Origin: Candidatus Thalassarchaeaceae archaeon | GTDB taxonomy: Archaea; Thermoplasmatota; Poseidoniia; Poseidoniales; Thalassarchaeaceae | Assembly: GCA_030748775.1 (NCBI GenBank) | Contig: JASMLH010000004.1 | Span: 27,234-91,233 of the forward strand | Reading direction: 5' to 3' | DNA: 64,000 bases | In this document: one piece after another, positions 2,576 to 28,621 of the stretch | Layout: every line of letters begins with the position of its first letter | Position numbering within the stretch: position 1 is the first letter of the stretch | Translations under genes and position numbers: made by a program | The notes under the pieces: model-generated | Databases searched by the model: none | The model's input: only the letters and a program-made list of their open reading frames with translations | What the model was told of the DNA's origin: nothing

Positions 2576-2940
2576 TGAATTCTGTTGACGACATATTATT
2601 GAAGAGATTCGAAAGTCCCGATGAGATTAGGAATTTCGAGAAGGGAAAATTTGAGATCTTGCATTTTGAAGGAATGACGATTGGCAGAGCAACTTACTAT
2701 CCTGGTTGGAAGTGGTCTGTCGATGTTTCTCCAATTTCTGGGACCGGTTTCTGCGAGGTTGAGCATCTTGGTATGGTGTTATCAGGCGTAGCGACCTGTG
2801 CGTTCAAAGATGGTGAGATTCACGAGCTCAAGGCTGGTGATCTATTCTATATCGGCCCTGAGCCTCATGATAGTTGGGTAGTCGGGGAGGAAGACTATGT
2901 TTCCCTACATTTCCTTGGCGCAGAGAAGTACGCGAAGTGA
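2575..2940 (+). CDS. cupin-domain protein
   Basis: 121 aa. A beta-barrel-like pattern (EHLGMVLSG...GD.FYIGP.PHDSW) suggests a cupin. The GTG start overlaps the ridA stop by 1 nt. Confidence 0.55.
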   Translation: MNSVDDILLKRFESPDEIRNFEKGKFEILHFEGMTIGRATYYPGWKWSVDVSPISGTGFCEVEHLGMVLSGVATCAFKDGEIHELKAGDLFYIGPEPHDSWVVGEEDYVSLHFLGAEKYAK

Positions 2941-2989
2941 AGAGTTCCCTACCAAGAAGATTAGGTAGCATCAGCGGGGGCGAAGAAGC

Positions 2990-4375
2990 ATGAGCGTGTT
3001 CAAGGCTTACGATATCAGGGGGATAGCTGGGGCTGAGCTGGATTCGGATTTCGCGGAGCGTCTTGGAGGGGCAATAGCTACTCACTTAGACGCAAGATGT
3101 GTCTCTGTTGTAAGAGATATCAGGGATTCTGGCCCAGAGTACCATGAGGCGTTTGTAAGGGGTCTTCTATCTGCAGGAGCAGATGTGATAGACCTGGGCA
3201 TTTCCACTACAGGCGTTCTATATCGTTCGACAGTAGACCTCCCCGTTGACGTAGCTGTGGCGATTACTGCAAGCCATAACCCTCCGGAGTACAATGGATT
3301 CAAGATTTGCCAAGGAAAAATGCCTCTTGGGGGGGAAGAGTTGCAAGATATCAGAAGGACCTTCGAAGCGGGGGATTTCAGAGTTGGTAATGGAAACTAC
3401 AAGTCCATGGAAGACTATGAATCAAAGTATATCGATTCCATAGTAGAAAGTGTTGGAAGTCCTTCAAGGGATATCCGGGTAGTTTTGGATTGTGGCAATG
3501 CAGTTCCGGGACCTCTGGCAGTTAAGGTTCTGGAAAGGCTAGGGATAGATGTCATACCCCTATACTGCGATTGGGACAGTTCATTCCCAAATCACCCGCC
3601 TGACCCTACTAGACCGAAGAACATGGTGGACCTTGGCAGGGCAGTACTAGAACACGGAGCCGAATTCGGAATCGGGATGGATGGAGATGGTGATCGCCTG
3701 GGAGTAGTGGATGAGAATGGAATTTTCATCCACCCCGATCGGCTAATGGGAATTTTTGTCCAAGACGTCCTATCAGGACTACCGGAAAATGCCACTGAAG
3801 AGCAGCGCACGATTTTCTTCGATGTGAAATGCAGCATGGCATTGGAGGAGGCGATAGAGAGTCTGGGAGGATTGCCTCGGATGGTAAGGACGGGTCATAC
3901 TTTCATGAAGATGGAGTTGCGGAATAATCCAACTTCCCCAATGGCAGGAGAGATGTCGGGGCATTTCTTCATGAATGACCACTGGGATGGTTTTGACGAT
4001 TCGATATATTGCGCTGCTAGGTTGATGAGGATTATAGGAAAGGACCCTGCTCCGGAACAAGGAGGGCCAAAATTCTCAGAAAGATTCGCATTCATGCCAG
4101 AATATCCGACAACGGACGAAGGAAAAGTCCCCTTGGTTGGAGGCAGGGACGAAATCATGGAAGGCGTTGCTAAGGCATTTTCGGATATGCCCCTATCGAC
4201 CGTTGATGGTATCAGGGTCAAGTACGAAGATGGATGGTACCTTTGCCGTCCCAGTAACACGGAGCCGATACTAGTGATGAGGGCGGAGGGCAGAGACCAG
4301 GAGGCTCTAGATTCCATTCTATTAGACGTAGAGTCCAGAATTGGCCAAATCGTGGACCTTGAGAAACTAAAGTAG
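2990..4375 (+). CDS. phosphomannomutase/phosphoglucomutase (alpha-D-phosphohexomutase family)
   Basis: Active-site loop TASHNPPEYNGFK, Mg-binding GMDGDGDR, and GEMSGH sugar-binding loop. 461 aa. Confidence 0.92.
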   Translation: MSVFKAYDIRGIAGAELDSDFAERLGGAIATHLDARCVSVVRDIRDSGPEYHEAFVRGLLSAGADVIDLGISTTGVLYRSTVDLPVDVAVAITASHNPPEYNGFKICQGKMPLGGEELQDIRRTFEAGDFRVGNGNYKSMEDYESKYIDSIVESVGSPSRDIRVVLDCGNAVPGPLAVKVLERLGIDVIPLYCDWDSSFPNHPPDPTRPKNMVDLGRAVLEHGAEFGIGMDGDGDRLGVVDENGIFIHPDRLMGIFVQDVLSGLPENATEEQRTIFFDVKCSMALEEAIESLGGLPRMVRTGHTFMKMELRNNPTSPMAGEMSGHFFMNDHWDGFDDSIYCAARLMRIIGKDPAPEQGGPKFSERFAFMPEYPTTDEGKVPLVGGRDEIMEGVAKAFSDMPLSTVDGIRVKYEDGWYLCRPSNTEPILVMRAEGRDQEALDSILLDVESRIGQIVDLEKLK

Positions 4376-23841: not shown

Positions 23842-24993
23842 ATGGTTATCCTCTATTCAACGCGCCTGGAAGTTGTGAAGCACCTTATTGAGAGGGTTCT
23901 CGAACTTCAAGGGGATGAAACTCAGGCTCCCGTTGCTACGGAAGTCGAAGACGCCCCGGACCTCGAGAACCTACTGAAATCGCTACAACCAAAAATCAGG
24001 GTCTTCGGTTGTGGTGGGTGTGGATCAAATACAGTAGCAAGGCTAGAGCATGAGGGTTTGTTCGACGGAGAGTATGTCAAGGGGATGGCGGTCAACACAG
24101 ATGCTCAGCACCTACTGAGAGTCAATGTAGAGAACAAAGTCCTGATTGGTCGCTCCGCCCGAGGCAGGGGGGCGGGGGGCGACCCAGAAAAAGGAGAACA
24201 GGCGGCATACGAATCAGAACGTGTGCTAAAATCAGAGGTGGAAGAGTGCGATTTAGCTTTCATCACCGCGGGCCTGGGCGGCGGGACAGGGACAGGGAGT
24301 GCCCATGTCGTCGCCAGGCTCGCAAAGGCCTCAGAAGCCCTGACAATCGCGGTCGTGAGCTATCCCTTTGTCTCCGAGGGAGCAGTTCGCAGACAGAATG
24401 CAGAATGGGGACTAGAAAGGCTCAGGGAGGTCTGCGACACGGTTATCGTTCTTCCCAATGAGAGGCTTCTGGAAGTCGATGGCGTCAGAGACCTTCCTCT
24501 TGATGCTGCCTTCAGAGTAGCAGATGAGCTCTTGATGAGGAGCATCTCGGGAGTCTCGGAAATGATTGCAAAGGAGGGAGTAGTGAACTTGGACTTCCAA
24601 GACCTCAGGTCGGTAATGGAAAACGGAGGAGGAGTAGCCATGATCGGACTTGGGGAGGCTACAGCCGAAGAGGGTGCAGAGAAGGCAACCATGGAGGCCC
24701 TTCAGTCTCCGCTTCTTGACATTGACATCTCCGATGCAAGAGGGGCGCTGGTGAATGTTGTCGGGGGCCCGGGGCTAACTCTAGGAGAGGCAGAGCAATG
24801 TGCAAAGACAATCAGGGAAAGCATCAATCCGTATGCTAGGATGATTTGGGGTGTTACAACTGACGAGACAATGGGCAACGATATCAGAGTTCTACTCGTT
24901 CTCACGGGAGTGAAGAGCGAACAGATACATGGTGCTGCCCTGCATACCCAGATGAAGAACCTGAGGAATCGCACTGTCGAATTTGTTAGTTAG
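23842..24993 (+). CDS. ftsZ: cell division GTPase FtsZ
   Basis: GCGGCGSN, NTDAQHL, and tubulin signature GLGGGTGTGS. Confidence 0.95.
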   Translation: MVILYSTRLEVVKHLIERVLELQGDETQAPVATEVEDAPDLENLLKSLQPKIRVFGCGGCGSNTVARLEHEGLFDGEYVKGMAVNTDAQHLLRVNVENKVLIGRSARGRGAGGDPEKGEQAAYESERVLKSEVEECDLAFITAGLGGGTGTGSAHVVARLAKASEALTIAVVSYPFVSEGAVRRQNAEWGLERLREVCDTVIVLPNERLLEVDGVRDLPLDAAFRVADELLMRSISGVSEMIAKEGVVNLDFQDLRSVMENGGGVAMIGLGEATAEEGAEKATMEALQSPLLDIDISDARGALVNVVGGPGLTLGEAEQCAKTIRESINPYARMIWGVTTDETMGNDIRVLLVLTGVKSEQIHGAALHTQMKNLRNRTVEFVS

Positions 24994-25079
24994 GCCTAGC
25001 CTGCCATTATTCCACATTCTATCTCCCCGTTGTCCTTAAATGGGGTCTGTAGGTCGCCGTGATGCTTCTTGGTGGTAGC

Positions 25080-25343
25080 ATGGCTGTTGAAAATTCCAAT
25101 GTTGGGCCTATCGAAGAGCTCGCACAGTCTTGGCAGGACGAAATTGAGGGCAGGGTCAAGGGCCTTCAGACCGGTTCTTACGCCAGAATTCTGAAGATGG
25201 CGAAAAAGCCGTCTAAGCAAGAGTTCAGGCAGACTGTAATTGTCTGCGGAATAGGCATGTTCGTTCTTGGCGCAATAGGATTCCTGATTCTCGCATTGAT
25301 GGTCAATGTCTTCCCATCCTTCTTTGGATGGTTGACTGGTTAG
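25080..25343 (+). CDS. secE: protein translocase subunit SecE / Sec61-gamma
   Basis: KKPSKQEFRQTVIVCGIGMFVLGAIGFLI forms a single C-terminal TM. The ATG at 25080 is preceded by GGTGG with a 4-nt spacer. It lies upstream of spt5. Confidence 0.85.
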   Translation: MAVENSNVGPIEELAQSWQDEIEGRVKGLQTGSYARILKMAKKPSKQEFRQTVIVCGIGMFVLGAIGFLILALMVNVFPSFFGWLTG

Positions 25344-26218
25344 GTGAGATTTTGTCAGAGGCTTTCACTGTATACCTCCGAAGCGGAGAGAAGGTCCTGC
25401 TAATGCAGCGTGCCGACGAAGTGGGCGACTTCCCAGGCGCATGGGACGGAATCTACGGGGTAGGGGATCACGGAGATGTGGATACAATAGTTTCGAGAAT
25501 AACGGAGTGTACTGGAATTCCAGCAGAGAATCTGGACATAGTTAGAACAGGAATGGCTAGGGGTCTTGCTTATGGAAATCGCTTGAATGATGTTACCCCA
25601 ATTTTGTTTGTGACGGAGGAAGTTGATGTTAGCCCAGGAACATTGTACAAGGGCTATGAGTGGGTCGATCCAGGGAAAATACAGGACAAAGAGTACTCAA
25701 CACCCCAACTAAAGGAGATGTACGGAGACGTTGCATCATACCTCTATATTCTGAAGACTTCCATAGGCCAAGAGCAGAATGTGGCAACTGAGATTCGTGC
25801 TAGACTTTCAGGGACAGGTTCATTGAAGGATATCCAAGACAAGATTTTCGGAGTTCTGAGTCCCCATTTCATGAAGGGATACATCTTCATTGAGGCTACT
25901 GCCATGCATCACGTCCAGAAGTTGATCGGCAGGGTCGGTGTAGGAGTGACGCCCCTAAAGAATTGCAGCAAGGTACTTGACGGGGAGAGTCCACTGGAAG
26001 ACGTCTTACCGTATCTAGAGCCCAAGGCAGCCACCTCGGGAATAGAGGAGGGGTGCATTGTAGAAATCTCGGGCGGTGCATTCCGTGGACAGACCGCCAG
26101 AGTCACACGAGTAGCTGAGTCGAAGGAAGAAGTGACTGTGGAGCTATTCGAGGCAGCTGTTCCTGTTGCACTCACAGTAAGAGCTGACCAAGTAAGGGTG
26201 ACCCAAAGGGTCGAGTAG
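25328..26218 (+). CDS. spt5: transcription elongation factor Spt5 (NusG) with an N-terminal degenerate Nudix-like extension
   Basis: The NGN domain YILKTSIGQEQNVATEIRARL and KOW region GCIVEISGGAFRGQTARV occupy only residues ~139-296. Residues ~10-125 look Nudix-fold-like. An alternative TTG start at 25352 follows AGGTGA with a 4-nt spacer. Confidence 0.85.
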   Translation: MVDWLGEILSEAFTVYLRSGEKVLLMQRADEVGDFPGAWDGIYGVGDHGDVDTIVSRITECTGIPAENLDIVRTGMARGLAYGNRLNDVTPILFVTEEVDVSPGTLYKGYEWVDPGKIQDKEYSTPQLKEMYGDVASYLYILKTSIGQEQNVATEIRARLSGTGSLKDIQDKIFGVLSPHFMKGYIFIEATAMHHVQKLIGRVGVGVTPLKNCSKVLDGESPLEDVLPYLEPKAATSGIEEGCIVEISGGAFRGQTARVTRVAESKEEVTVELFEAAVPVALTVRADQVRVTQRVE

Positions 26219-26300
26219 TCAAATGTCCAATATTTTGACCGTGCATCATCATCAAATAGGGAGAGCAGGTCGGCGAGTCCCGCGGTTAAGAGGTGAATCC

Positions 26301-26579
26301 ATGTCAGCACGCAACGAGACTCCTCACAAAATCTTGCAGACTCTGGGACAAAAAAAGTCCAACGGCTCTTGGGATGCCTCGACTGAGAACATGACAATGG
26401 ACCAGGTGAAGAGCGTGGCAGAGTCTCAGAAGGACCGCTTGACTGGAAAGTCACTTTATGCAAGAAGCAGGGAGATAATGGGAACTTGCGTCGCTATGCG
26501 CATTAGAGTAGAAGGGATGGAGCCAAAGGAAGCTCTGAAGGCAATGAGCGAGGGGGCATTTAACGAGCATTTCAGTTAG
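26301..26579 (+). CDS. rpl11: ribosomal protein uL11, C-terminal (rRNA-binding) domain only
   Basis: NMTMDQVKSVAESQKDRLTGKSLYARSREIMGTCVAMRIRVEG matches the uL11 C-terminal domain. The ATG at 26301 follows AAGAGGTGA with a 4-nt spacer. The ORF opens at 26223, but no PGPPLGP-type N-terminal domain appears in any frame. Confidence 0.7.
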   Translation: MSARNETPHKILQTLGQKKSNGSWDASTENMTMDQVKSVAESQKDRLTGKSLYARSREIMGTCVAMRIRVEGMEPKEALKAMSEGAFNEHFS

Positions 26580-26631: not shown

Positions 26632-27276
26632 ATGAGAGAAAATCTGCAGACAGCCATTCAAGAAGCCATCGACGGCGCACCCGAGAGGGGATTTGTAGAG
26701 TCGATTGAGATTTCCTTCACTATCAAAGACGTTGATCTGAAGATTCCCACCAACAGAATACAGGAAGAGGTTCGTCTACCATCCGGAAGGGGAAAACCTG
26801 TACGAATAGCAATGTTTGCTGGTGGGGAGATGGCTGCTAAGGCTAAGGCGGCCGGACTCGACATCATCGATCCCTCGACAATAGAGGACCTAGGTGGGAA
26901 TAGGCAGAGAGCCAGGAAGGTTGCGAAGCAATACGACTTTTTCCTCTCTGAGATCCCGCATATGGGAACCGTTGGTAGATTCCTCGGAGGCGTGCTCGGA
27001 CCCAGAGGCAAGATGCCTCGTCCAGTTCCACCCACCTTGGATCCATCTGCATTGGCTTCGGGCCTTAAGGACACAGCCATAGTTCGTTCTCGAGACAGGG
27101 TTACATTCCACACAGCCCTGGGATCTAGGGAACAAGGCATAGACGACCTCACCTCAAACGCCTACGCAATTTGGGAGAGAGTCACTGGAAAGCTGGAGAG
27201 GGGCGCTGGCAATATACGGTCTTGCTATGTCAAGACATCAATGGGCCCTTCCATCAAGGTTGAGGTGATTCTGTGA
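26632..27276 (+). CDS. rpl1: ribosomal protein uL1
   Basis: FVESIEISFTIKDVDLK...RLPSGRGK and GPRGKMP. The ATG at 26632 is preceded by GAGGTGG with a 5-nt spacer. Confidence 0.93.
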   Translation: MRENLQTAIQEAIDGAPERGFVESIEISFTIKDVDLKIPTNRIQEEVRLPSGRGKPVRIAMFAGGEMAAKAKAAGLDIIDPSTIEDLGGNRQRARKVAKQYDFFLSEIPHMGTVGRFLGGVLGPRGKMPRPVPPTLDPSALASGLKDTAIVRSRDRVTFHTALGSREQGIDDLTSNAYAIWERVTGKLERGAGNIRSCYVKTSMGPSIKVEVIL

Positions 27277-28289
27277 TTCCGAAGGTCGCTGAATGGAAGA
27301 AGGATCGAGTATCTGAGCTCGCTGGAATATTCAGTAGCGACGGAGTAGTGGCCGTTGTGGATGTTTCTGGAGTTCCTGCGAACAACATGATCGATATGCG
27401 GAAAACACTCCGAGGCAGGATGTCCATAACAATGGCAAAGAAGTCGCTGATGAGGATTGCCTGGACAGAGGCAGGTAGAGATCCAGATGAGCTCGAGGGG
27501 CTTCTGGAAGGTGCAGAACAGCCGTGTGTAGTCCATAGCGACTCAATGAACGCATTCGAAATTTTCAGTGAGCTTGAGAAAACACGTCAGGGGCGTCCGG
27601 CGAAAGCTGGGGAGAGCTTTCCTGAACAGATTACCATTCCTGCCGGTCCAACAGAGTTCGGTCCAGGACCAATAGTCGGTGAGTTCAACGCCGTGGGGAT
27701 ACCAGCGAAGATTGACAAGGGCAAGGTTGCAATTCAGAAGGATACGACTTTCGAGCAGGGTGACGAGATTTCTGCAGATCTGGGAATCATGCTAGCTAAA
27801 CTTGGAATCAACCCAATCGAGATTGGTCTGATCCTAACTGGTGCAATCGAGGGCGGGCACATATTCTCATCATCGGATCTTGATCTAGATACTGATGGGC
27901 TGAGGAATGACATCATCATGGCCACTTCAGGCTCGTACAACCTAGCTTGCAACGTAAGATGGTTCTCGACAACCACCTCTCCGACTCTCATTTCCAAGGC
28001 AGCAAGTGAGGCTTTGTCGGTCGCCCTTGAGGCAGGCATAGTTAACGATGCCACGGCAACCCACATCCTATCACAGGCACAATCACGTGCTCTGTCCCTA
28101 GCTGGACAATTAGATTCCGATGCTCTTGACGACGAGTTGCGCGCCAGTTTGGGCGCTGCGTCAATGAGCACTGAAGCCGCACCCTCCGAGGCGGCAACAA
28201 CAGAAGAGGCCGAAGAGGCCCCTGCTGAGGAAGAAGAGGAGGAAGAGGGGGATGCCGAGTTCAGTGGACTCGGTGACCTCTTCGGTTGA
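27273..28289 (+). CDS. rpl10: ribosomal stalk protein uL10 (P0)
   Basis: The GTG start overlaps the L1 stop (GTGA) and is preceded by GAGGTGA. The acidic tail [20 protein letters not shown] is typical of P0. Confidence 0.93.
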
Positions 28290-28306: not shown

Positions 28307-28621
28307 ATGGAATATGTGTATGCTGCAATGTTGTTGCATTCTGCAGGAAAGGGCATCGATGACAAGGCCGTCAGCTCAGTGCTGAAGGCCGCTGGAGTAG
28401 AGGCAGATGGGGCCAGAGTTACGGCCCTAGTAGCCTCTCTCAATGAGGTTGACATCGATGAGGCCATGGCGACCGCGGTCGCCGCCCCAGTGGCCTCGGC
28501 TGCTCCGTCTGCTTCTTCCGGAGGAGCGCCATCAGAGGCTGCTCCCGCTGAGGAGGAGGCTGCTGAGGAGCCCGAGGAAGACGCGGGCGGCTTCGAGGGC
28601 CTGGGCTCCCTGTTCGGCTGA
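28307..28621 (+). CDS. rpl12: ribosomal stalk protein P1 (L12e)
   Basis: [15 protein letters not shown]...[15 protein letters not shown]. The ATG at 28307 is preceded by AGGTGA with a 5-nt spacer. Confidence 0.93.

Follow-up and report, generated by a model that had tools for sequence, protein, structure and literature searches.

Comparison of the uL11 locus in a 64,000-nucleotide stretch of a Candidatus Thalassarchaeaceae genome (contig JASMLH010000004.1; hereafter the window) with the corresponding loci of its relatives indicates that the uL11 gene of Poseidoniales (MGII) encodes the C-terminal domain (CTD) only, and that no N-terminal domain (NTD) occurs in any Poseidoniales genome sampled. 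We consider it very probable that this single gene specifies a complete CTD together with the archaeal tail, that an NTD of ~66 residues has been lost, and that the ribosome works without it. uL11 is universally conserved. Textbooks place its NTD in the GTPase-associated centre, as a conformational switch that contacts EF-G/EF2 and EF-Tu/EF1A and supplies one wall of the site bound by thiostrepton and micrococcin. What is new is that a whole abundant order natively has only one of the two domains of a universal ribosomal protein; a full-text literature search, which covered subscription papers in part so that prior mention is possible, returned no publication on uL11 without an NTD, whether in Poseidoniales or elsewhere in archaea. 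Our confidence is high in the genomic facts and moderate in the mechanism proposed from them.

Gene limits, locus layout and upstream region

The gene lies in a conserved archaeal cluster, FtsZ-SecE-Spt5-L11-L1-P0-P1, which has the following features in the window.

23842-24993: FtsZ
25059-25343: SecE, upstream of Spt5
25328-26218, + strand: Spt5, the upstream neighbour (Pfam Spt5-NGN 139-202, KOW 244-272), with a ~135-aa N-terminal extension
26223-26300, + strand: upstream 26 codons of a 118-aa ORF, read as non-coding, the open frame being accidental
26252-26275, + strand: promoter-like motif TCAAATAGGGAGAGCAGGTCGGCG, a TATA-like box with a conserved AGGTCGSCG element
26288-26296, + strand: Shine-Dalgarno-like sequence AAGAGGTGA, read from the sequence, with a 4-nt spacer to ATG 26301
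26301-26579, + strand: CTD-only uL11 gene, 92 aa and a TAG stop; the protein (MSARNETPH...) begins at the relic of the inter-domain TPP hinge
26632-27276, + strand: uL1 (Pfam Ribosomal_L1, 140 bits); the ORF is callable from GTG 26623, and the Shine-Dalgarno sequence is at ATG 26632
27273-28289, + strand: stalk protein P0 (uL10; Pfam Ribosomal_L10 6-102, RL10P_insert 110-179 corresponding to profile positions 1-71 of 71)
28307-28621, + strand: stalk protein P1 (aP1; Pfam Ribosomal_60s)

An earlier note on this DNA had assigned uL11 the span 26219-26579, in the canonical slot between spt5 and L1, had counted 26 further codons upstream of an internal start, and had proposed a product of about 92 residues comprising the CTD alone. 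The slot, the codon count and the product stand, since a 118-aa ORF at 26223-26579 sits between Spt5 and L1/P0/P1 and from ATG 26223 it is 26 codons to ATG 26301; the span has to be shortened. In a comparison of ~70 orthologous loci, drawn from its genus, its family and its order, the codon matching 26301 is ATG in all Thalassarchaeaceae (MGIIb) loci (n=60+), with TTG in two, and the length of the Thalassarchaeaceae orthologs is always 92 aa, or 91 aa in the one locus with an ambiguous base. A GGAGG- or GAGGTGA-like motif is kept 5-10 nt 5' of the conserved start, and about 20 of the loci have an in-frame stop (TAA, TAG or TGA) 1-4 codons 5' of it. Residues 3-26 of the 118-aa ORF do have apparent amino-acid similarity within the genus, owing to a conserved nucleotide motif whose reading frame differs between genomes. 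From the retention of the ATG and of the 92-aa length, together with the upstream stops and shifting frames of orthologs, we therefore take the true coding region to be 26301-26579, and the 78 nt at 26223-26300 to be a conserved non-coding promoter and leader. The related public protein clusters, 155 in number, are nearly all of 92 aa with PF00298 as their only domain. The Shine-Dalgarno sequence described in the note is present before ATG 26301; its further claim, that the same GGTGA signal precedes L1, P0 and P1, holds for P0 (GAGGTGA, 4 nt upstream of GTG 27273) and P1 (AGGTGA, 5 nt upstream of ATG 28307), and for L1 only approximately (GAGGTGG, 5 nt upstream of ATG 26632).

The order SecE-Spt5-L11c-L1-P0-P1 seen in the window is the same in MGIIa, and the Spt5-L11 adjacency is present also in MGIII. 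In the MGIII locus spt5-L11 is followed by a 306-aa ORF, carbamate kinase-like by eye, and not by L1-P0-P1; the L11-L1-P0-P1 linkage of MGII is therefore not common to the sister order. The adjoining Spt5 gene has a peculiarity of its own. MGIII Spt5 aligns only to residues 137-294 of the window protein, and the Spt5 of a marine metagenome lineage considered below (contig L111) is a plain 149 aa, which argues that the ~135-aa N-terminal extension is, like the truncation of uL11 in the gene next to it, specific to MGII.

Every MGIIb locus has the motif at 26252-26275, and it is conserved more weakly in MGIIa. The metagenome-assembled genome (MAG) to which the window belongs, of 890 kb, has three copies of its core, T[CT]AAAT[AG]GGG-N6-AGGTCG[GC]C, against ~0.8 expected, all in sense orientation: at 25035-25057 and 26252-26274 of the window, and from 13114 on another contig of the same MAG (C35). 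The first copy is followed closely by secE(-spt5), the second by L11-L1-P0-P1 and the third by the S13-S4-S11 operon. The motif is probably the L11-L1-P0-P1 promoter, and can be read as a TATA box followed by a conserved proximal element that promoters of translation-apparatus genes have in common. The start codon of secE follows directly after its copy, and for this reason a leaderless secE mRNA is suggested. The possibility that the leader is an rRNA mimic, serving as an autoregulatory site for L1 or L11, was considered and rejected: the conserved leader gave no Rfam match at E<=10, and comparison with MGII 23S rRNA revealed no similarity beyond 8-mers. A promoter is preferred over such a mimic, given that further copies of the motif stand before secE and the S13 operon.

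Identity, fold and selection of the C-terminal domain

The likeness to the uL11 CTD claimed in the earlier note is upheld by several comparisons. PF00298 is the sole Pfam domain in the 118-aa ORF (residues 36-96, corresponding to profile positions 8-69 of 69; 25.6 bits vs a cut-off of 21.4), and this gene is the only PF00298 match in its genome. Over its full length the 92-aa protein can be aligned with P. furiosus L11 (residues 76-158, E=1.5e-11), the archaea-specific C-terminal tail included. The archaeal L11 equivalog model, NCBIfam NF002232 (PRK01143), is matched over positions 77-158 of 164 with 59.3 bits, below its cut-off of 162, which MGIII uL11 passes with 177.6 bits. This low score probably explains the name "hypothetical protein" that the protein bears in NCBI records; JGI names it ribosomal protein L11.

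An AlphaFold2 model of the protein (pLDDT 84, pTM 0.77) was compared by Foldseek with known structures, and superimposes on M. jannaschii L11 in the P-stalk-base/thiostrepton complex 5d8h (chain 5d8h_C; TMq 0.85, rmsd 1.6 Å over 88 columns) and on 4v9f_I (TMq 0.81), as well as on CTD-only chains such as 1hc8 and 1s72_I. The predicted structure thus has the L11 CTD fold, including the archaeal C-terminal helix. When MGII proteins are aligned with MGIII uL11 they are found to start at the inter-domain Thr-Pro-Pro hinge, where MGIII reads ...SVGTPPAASLVKQ, MGIIb MSARNETPHKILQ and MGIIa MPKPWTSELIKK.

Among 54 unique MGIIb coding sequences, dN/dS is 0.06-0.08 at a mean dS of ~1.3 (Nei-Gojobori), and the N-terminal stretch MSARNETPH hardly varies (omega 0.004 over these nine residues). 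A dN/dS of ~0.07 indicates strong purifying selection on a CTD-only gene that is actively maintained and not a decaying remnant. The domain itself nevertheless diverged markedly, and fast, after the NTD was lost: PF00298 scores fall from 64.8 bits in MGIII to 40 in MGIIa and 25.6 in the window's genome, and the motif KGSG has become KSNGS, and GTxxSMG of helix 5 has become GTCVAMR. On account of this divergence we call binding of rRNA by the 92-aa protein plausible, and go no further. A variant form occurs in a Thalassarchaeaceae-labelled cluster of 65 members, whose CTD-only uL11 is 101 aa long and has, as judged by eye, an insertion of ~9 residues in the loop that follows the KxNGSW motif.

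Absence of the N-terminal domain in Poseidoniales, and CTD-only proteins beyond

Because the window's MAG is 58% complete, the case for absence of the NTD rests on its relatives. A six-frame search of the MAG with PF03946 gave no match at E<=10, the same search being positive in 14 of 14 control genomes. PF03946 exceeded its cut-off in none of 41 relatives drawn from three families of the order, a single-contig closed genome of 2.06 Mb included; a short uL11 homolog was found in 39 of them. A second NTD profile was built from the NTDs of MGIII, the nearest full-length relatives. Applied to the window's genome with HMMER filters off, it reached at best 7.9 bits, against 162 bits at a control locus. 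Across 201 Poseidoniales genomes of 24 genera, closed ones included, it yielded noise only (<=17 bits), in scattered places and often broken by stops. The few matches of 12-17 bits are either at unrelated positions or inside the L1 gene. Those inside L1 of three MGIIa genomes were set aside as noise, this L1 being of normal length (216 aa), and the fact that the NTD region of MGIII uL11 itself weakly matches the L1 profile (E 0.083) would account for them. The earlier note's claims that no frame of the locus encodes an NTD and that the domain is missing agree with these searches, and three circumstances that it had named as fatal to its reading were not found: there is no NTD ORF elsewhere in this genome or in the 201 of the order, the residues of the upstream ORF are no divergent NTD since the 26 codons are non-coding, and a deletion or frameshift artefact is excluded by conservation of the locus in related genomes and by its dN/dS.

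The best-matching ortholog locus is that of Ca. Thalassarchaeum MGIIb-O3 (97%), and the same CTD-only architecture recurs in independent assemblies of many studies, well over 100 in all, among them single-cell and closed genomes. In a class-level sample PF03946 was found in 22 genomes (72-90 bits, with one partial match at 30.5 bits), all of them from sister families (MGIII) and none from Poseidoniales; the MGIII genes encode two-domain proteins of 156 aa. At the level of the phylum, PF03946 is present in 219 of the 301 Thermoplasmatota sampled, and all listed genomes that are without it belong to Poseidoniales. A normal uL11 of 156-160 aa is the rule in MGIII and in ~97% of the other Thermoplasmatota sampled outside Poseidoniales. 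Gaps in the phylum-level match listing point to six genomes outside the class with no NTD match, of which five are also without a CTD and one has a CTD fragment of 20 residues only. These were rejected as further CTD-only cases, since none has a complete L11 gene; most likely they are assembly gaps, because the NTD is present in the other members of the genus to which three of them belong. The simplest history for this distribution is that the NTD was lost once, in the ancestor of Poseidoniales after it had parted from MGIII.

Proteins of the same kind also exist outside MGII. An exhaustive phmmer search of 1.84 billion representatives returned 85 matches, among which PF00298-only proteins starting at the hinge occur in MAGs labelled Candidatus Micrarchaeota (93 aa), Aenigmarchaeota (138 aa) and Ca. 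Tiddalikarchaeum (194 aa). An abundant marine type is represented by an 89-aa CTD-only protein on 141 contigs. The marine metagenome contig L111 has the order ftsZ-secE-spt5-L11c, with L11c at 2863-3099, its ATG overlapping the spt5 stop and no NTD within the 3.1 kb of the contig. These ORFs resemble the MGII gene in their domain content and in beginning at the hinge, but some of them, including those of Aenigmarchaeota and Ca. Tiddalikarchaeum, have long low-complexity C-terminal extensions (50-100 aa, rich in Lys, Glu, Ala and Pro) that MGII proteins do not have. Since they are only 28-42% identical to the MGII protein, they probably reflect independent losses. It therefore looks as if archaea have lost the uL11 NTD more than once, the cases outside MGII being known from ORFs and one 3.1-kb contig.

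Proposed translation without the factor-contacting half of uL11

The rRNA partner of uL11 could be compared across the same groups, with 23S sequences taken from genomes of the same genus, of the same family and of MGIIa, the window's MAG having no 23S. Eight MGIII or related genomes encoding a full-length uL11 served for contrast. Throughout MGII, in MGIIa and MGIIb alike, the GTPase-associated-centre RNA (58 nt, E. coli 1051-1108) has one and the same sequence. A1067 and A1095, the adenines contacted by thiopeptides, are unchanged. Positions 1061 and 1083, which are unpaired or tertiary, are G in MGII and U in MGIII and related genomes as well as in E. coli; apart from these two the MGII centre is canonical, the closing stem (1053-1106, 1054-1105) having undergone neutral compensatory swaps. 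The pair U1091-A1100 was considered as an MGII adaptation and rejected, as MGIII genomes with full-length uL11 have the same pair.

C-terminal fragments of L11 bind the GTPase-centre rRNA on their own, and ribosomes of thiostrepton-resistant L11-minus bacteria work without uL11. In the two-domain protein the CTD is the rRNA-binding part, and the NTD contacts factors, its GPLG motif/helix binding eEF2 (PMC9122527), and touches the extension domain of P0 (PMC9122527; CTD-RNA structures such as 1HC8). A yeast uL11 null (the rpl12a/b double deletion) is viable but slow, and ribosomes can work without uL11 at a cost in speed and accuracy (PMC9122527). We propose that the 92-aa protein of MGII would occupy the uL11 site on helices 43/44 of 23S rRNA and would stabilize the fold of the GTPase-associated centre and the stalk base beside P0. 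Indirect support for this placement comes from the MGII rRNA centre, canonical but for G1061 and G1083, and from the strong purifying selection on the gene. P0 in the window is normal in its length and in its domains, the insertion (EXT) domain being intact. The ribosome would run without the GPLG helix that contacts aEF2 and aEF1A, and the protein wall of the thiostrepton/micrococcin pocket would be missing. Factor recruitment and GTPase activation would fall to the P0-(P1)n stalk and the sarcin-ricin loop alone, the functions of the NTD being either dispensed with or taken over by other components. Such ribosomes are predicted to be intrinsically insensitive to thiopeptides and to have altered factor kinetics.

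The MGII protein differs from each of the systems with which it can be compared. Canonical archaeal uL11 (PF03946 plus PF00298; M. jannaschii 5D8H and 5COL, P. furiosus 4V6U chain BH) occupies the same slot after spt5 and has the CTD fold and C-terminal tail in common with it, but possesses in addition the NTD of ~66 residues, including the factor-contact motif AGPPLGPALG. Engineered CTD fragments on the 58-nt GTPase-centre RNA (1HC8, 1Y39), and chain I of 1S72, in which only the CTD is modelled, comprise the same part of the protein and match the MGII model (Foldseek TMt 0.80-0.84, rmsd 1.5-1.8 Å over 67 columns); these, however, are laboratory truncations or partly disordered two-domain chains, whereas the MGII truncation is a native, selected gene of a whole order. 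Likewise, uL11-deficient yeast and bacteria are laboratory mutants with a fitness cost, in contrast to the reduced state fixed in abundant free-living plankton.

Several other explanations of the short gene have to be weighed against a genuine loss. It is hardly credible that the locus is an artefact of assembly or binning, or that a full-length uL11 has decayed here to a pseudogene: the genome is indeed a fragmented MAG, but the architecture is common to far too many independent assemblies, and a gene with this dN/dS, free of frameshifts and with its start and Shine-Dalgarno sequence conserved, does not behave as a remnant. Nearly as improbable is a 118-aa product initiated at ATG 26223 with a novel N-terminal extension of 26 residues. 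The frame is open in this genome and the extension has some similarity within the genus, but ortholog stops interrupt it, its conserved nucleotides fall in differing frames, the Shine-Dalgarno sequence lies inside it, and gene callers settle on 92 aa for almost every one of the 155 clusters. Somewhat more room, though very little, is left for an NTD that survives elsewhere as a separate or fused ORF beyond recognition, given that the MAG is incomplete and that HMM searches can miss extreme divergence; against it, both PF03946 and the profile of the closest relatives, applied in six frames to 201 genomes of the order, single-contig ones included, returned nothing credible, and the weak matches that did arise lie in unrelated places or in L1, where the resemblance to the L1 profile would explain them.

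The only rival that keeps an appreciable, if small, probability is functional replacement, in which a lineage-specific protein, altered surfaces of P0 or aEF2, or the two rRNA changes have assumed the role of the NTD in a remodelled centre. This would refine the main reading without contradicting it. In its favour are the fixation of G1061 and G1083 in both MGIIa and MGIIb where MGIII and E. coli have U, the fast evolution of the CTD after the loss, and the near invariance of the new N-terminus; on the other hand, no candidate protein has been identified, P0 is unremarkable in length and domains, and the rRNA changes are few and leave A1067 and A1095 untouched. We favour loss of the NTD, with the CTD retained, as the account of these genes.

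MGII thus probably translate without the half of uL11 that touches factors and forms the thiopeptide pocket. On a broader view, we think it likely that the whole order is natively without the NTD, that the reduction has been repeated in archaea (in MGII, several DPANN-labelled lineages and a marine lineage), and that the stalk base can work without the factor switch or thiopeptide pocket. A practical corollary is that marker sets containing PF03946 or the L11 equivalog would presumably underestimate the completeness of MGII genomes. With regard to the ribosome itself, an order-wide, selected loss in abundant free-living organisms would mean that the NTD is dispensable outside the laboratory, and would make MGII a natural system in which the contribution of this domain to speed, accuracy and stalk assembly can be approached, with thiopeptide insensitivity as an intrinsic trait predicted for the group. 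If this is true, the NTD is a part of the ribosome that can be dispensed with in nature, and one that may be shed under certain selective regimes, thiopeptide pressure or slow-growth oligotrophy for example.
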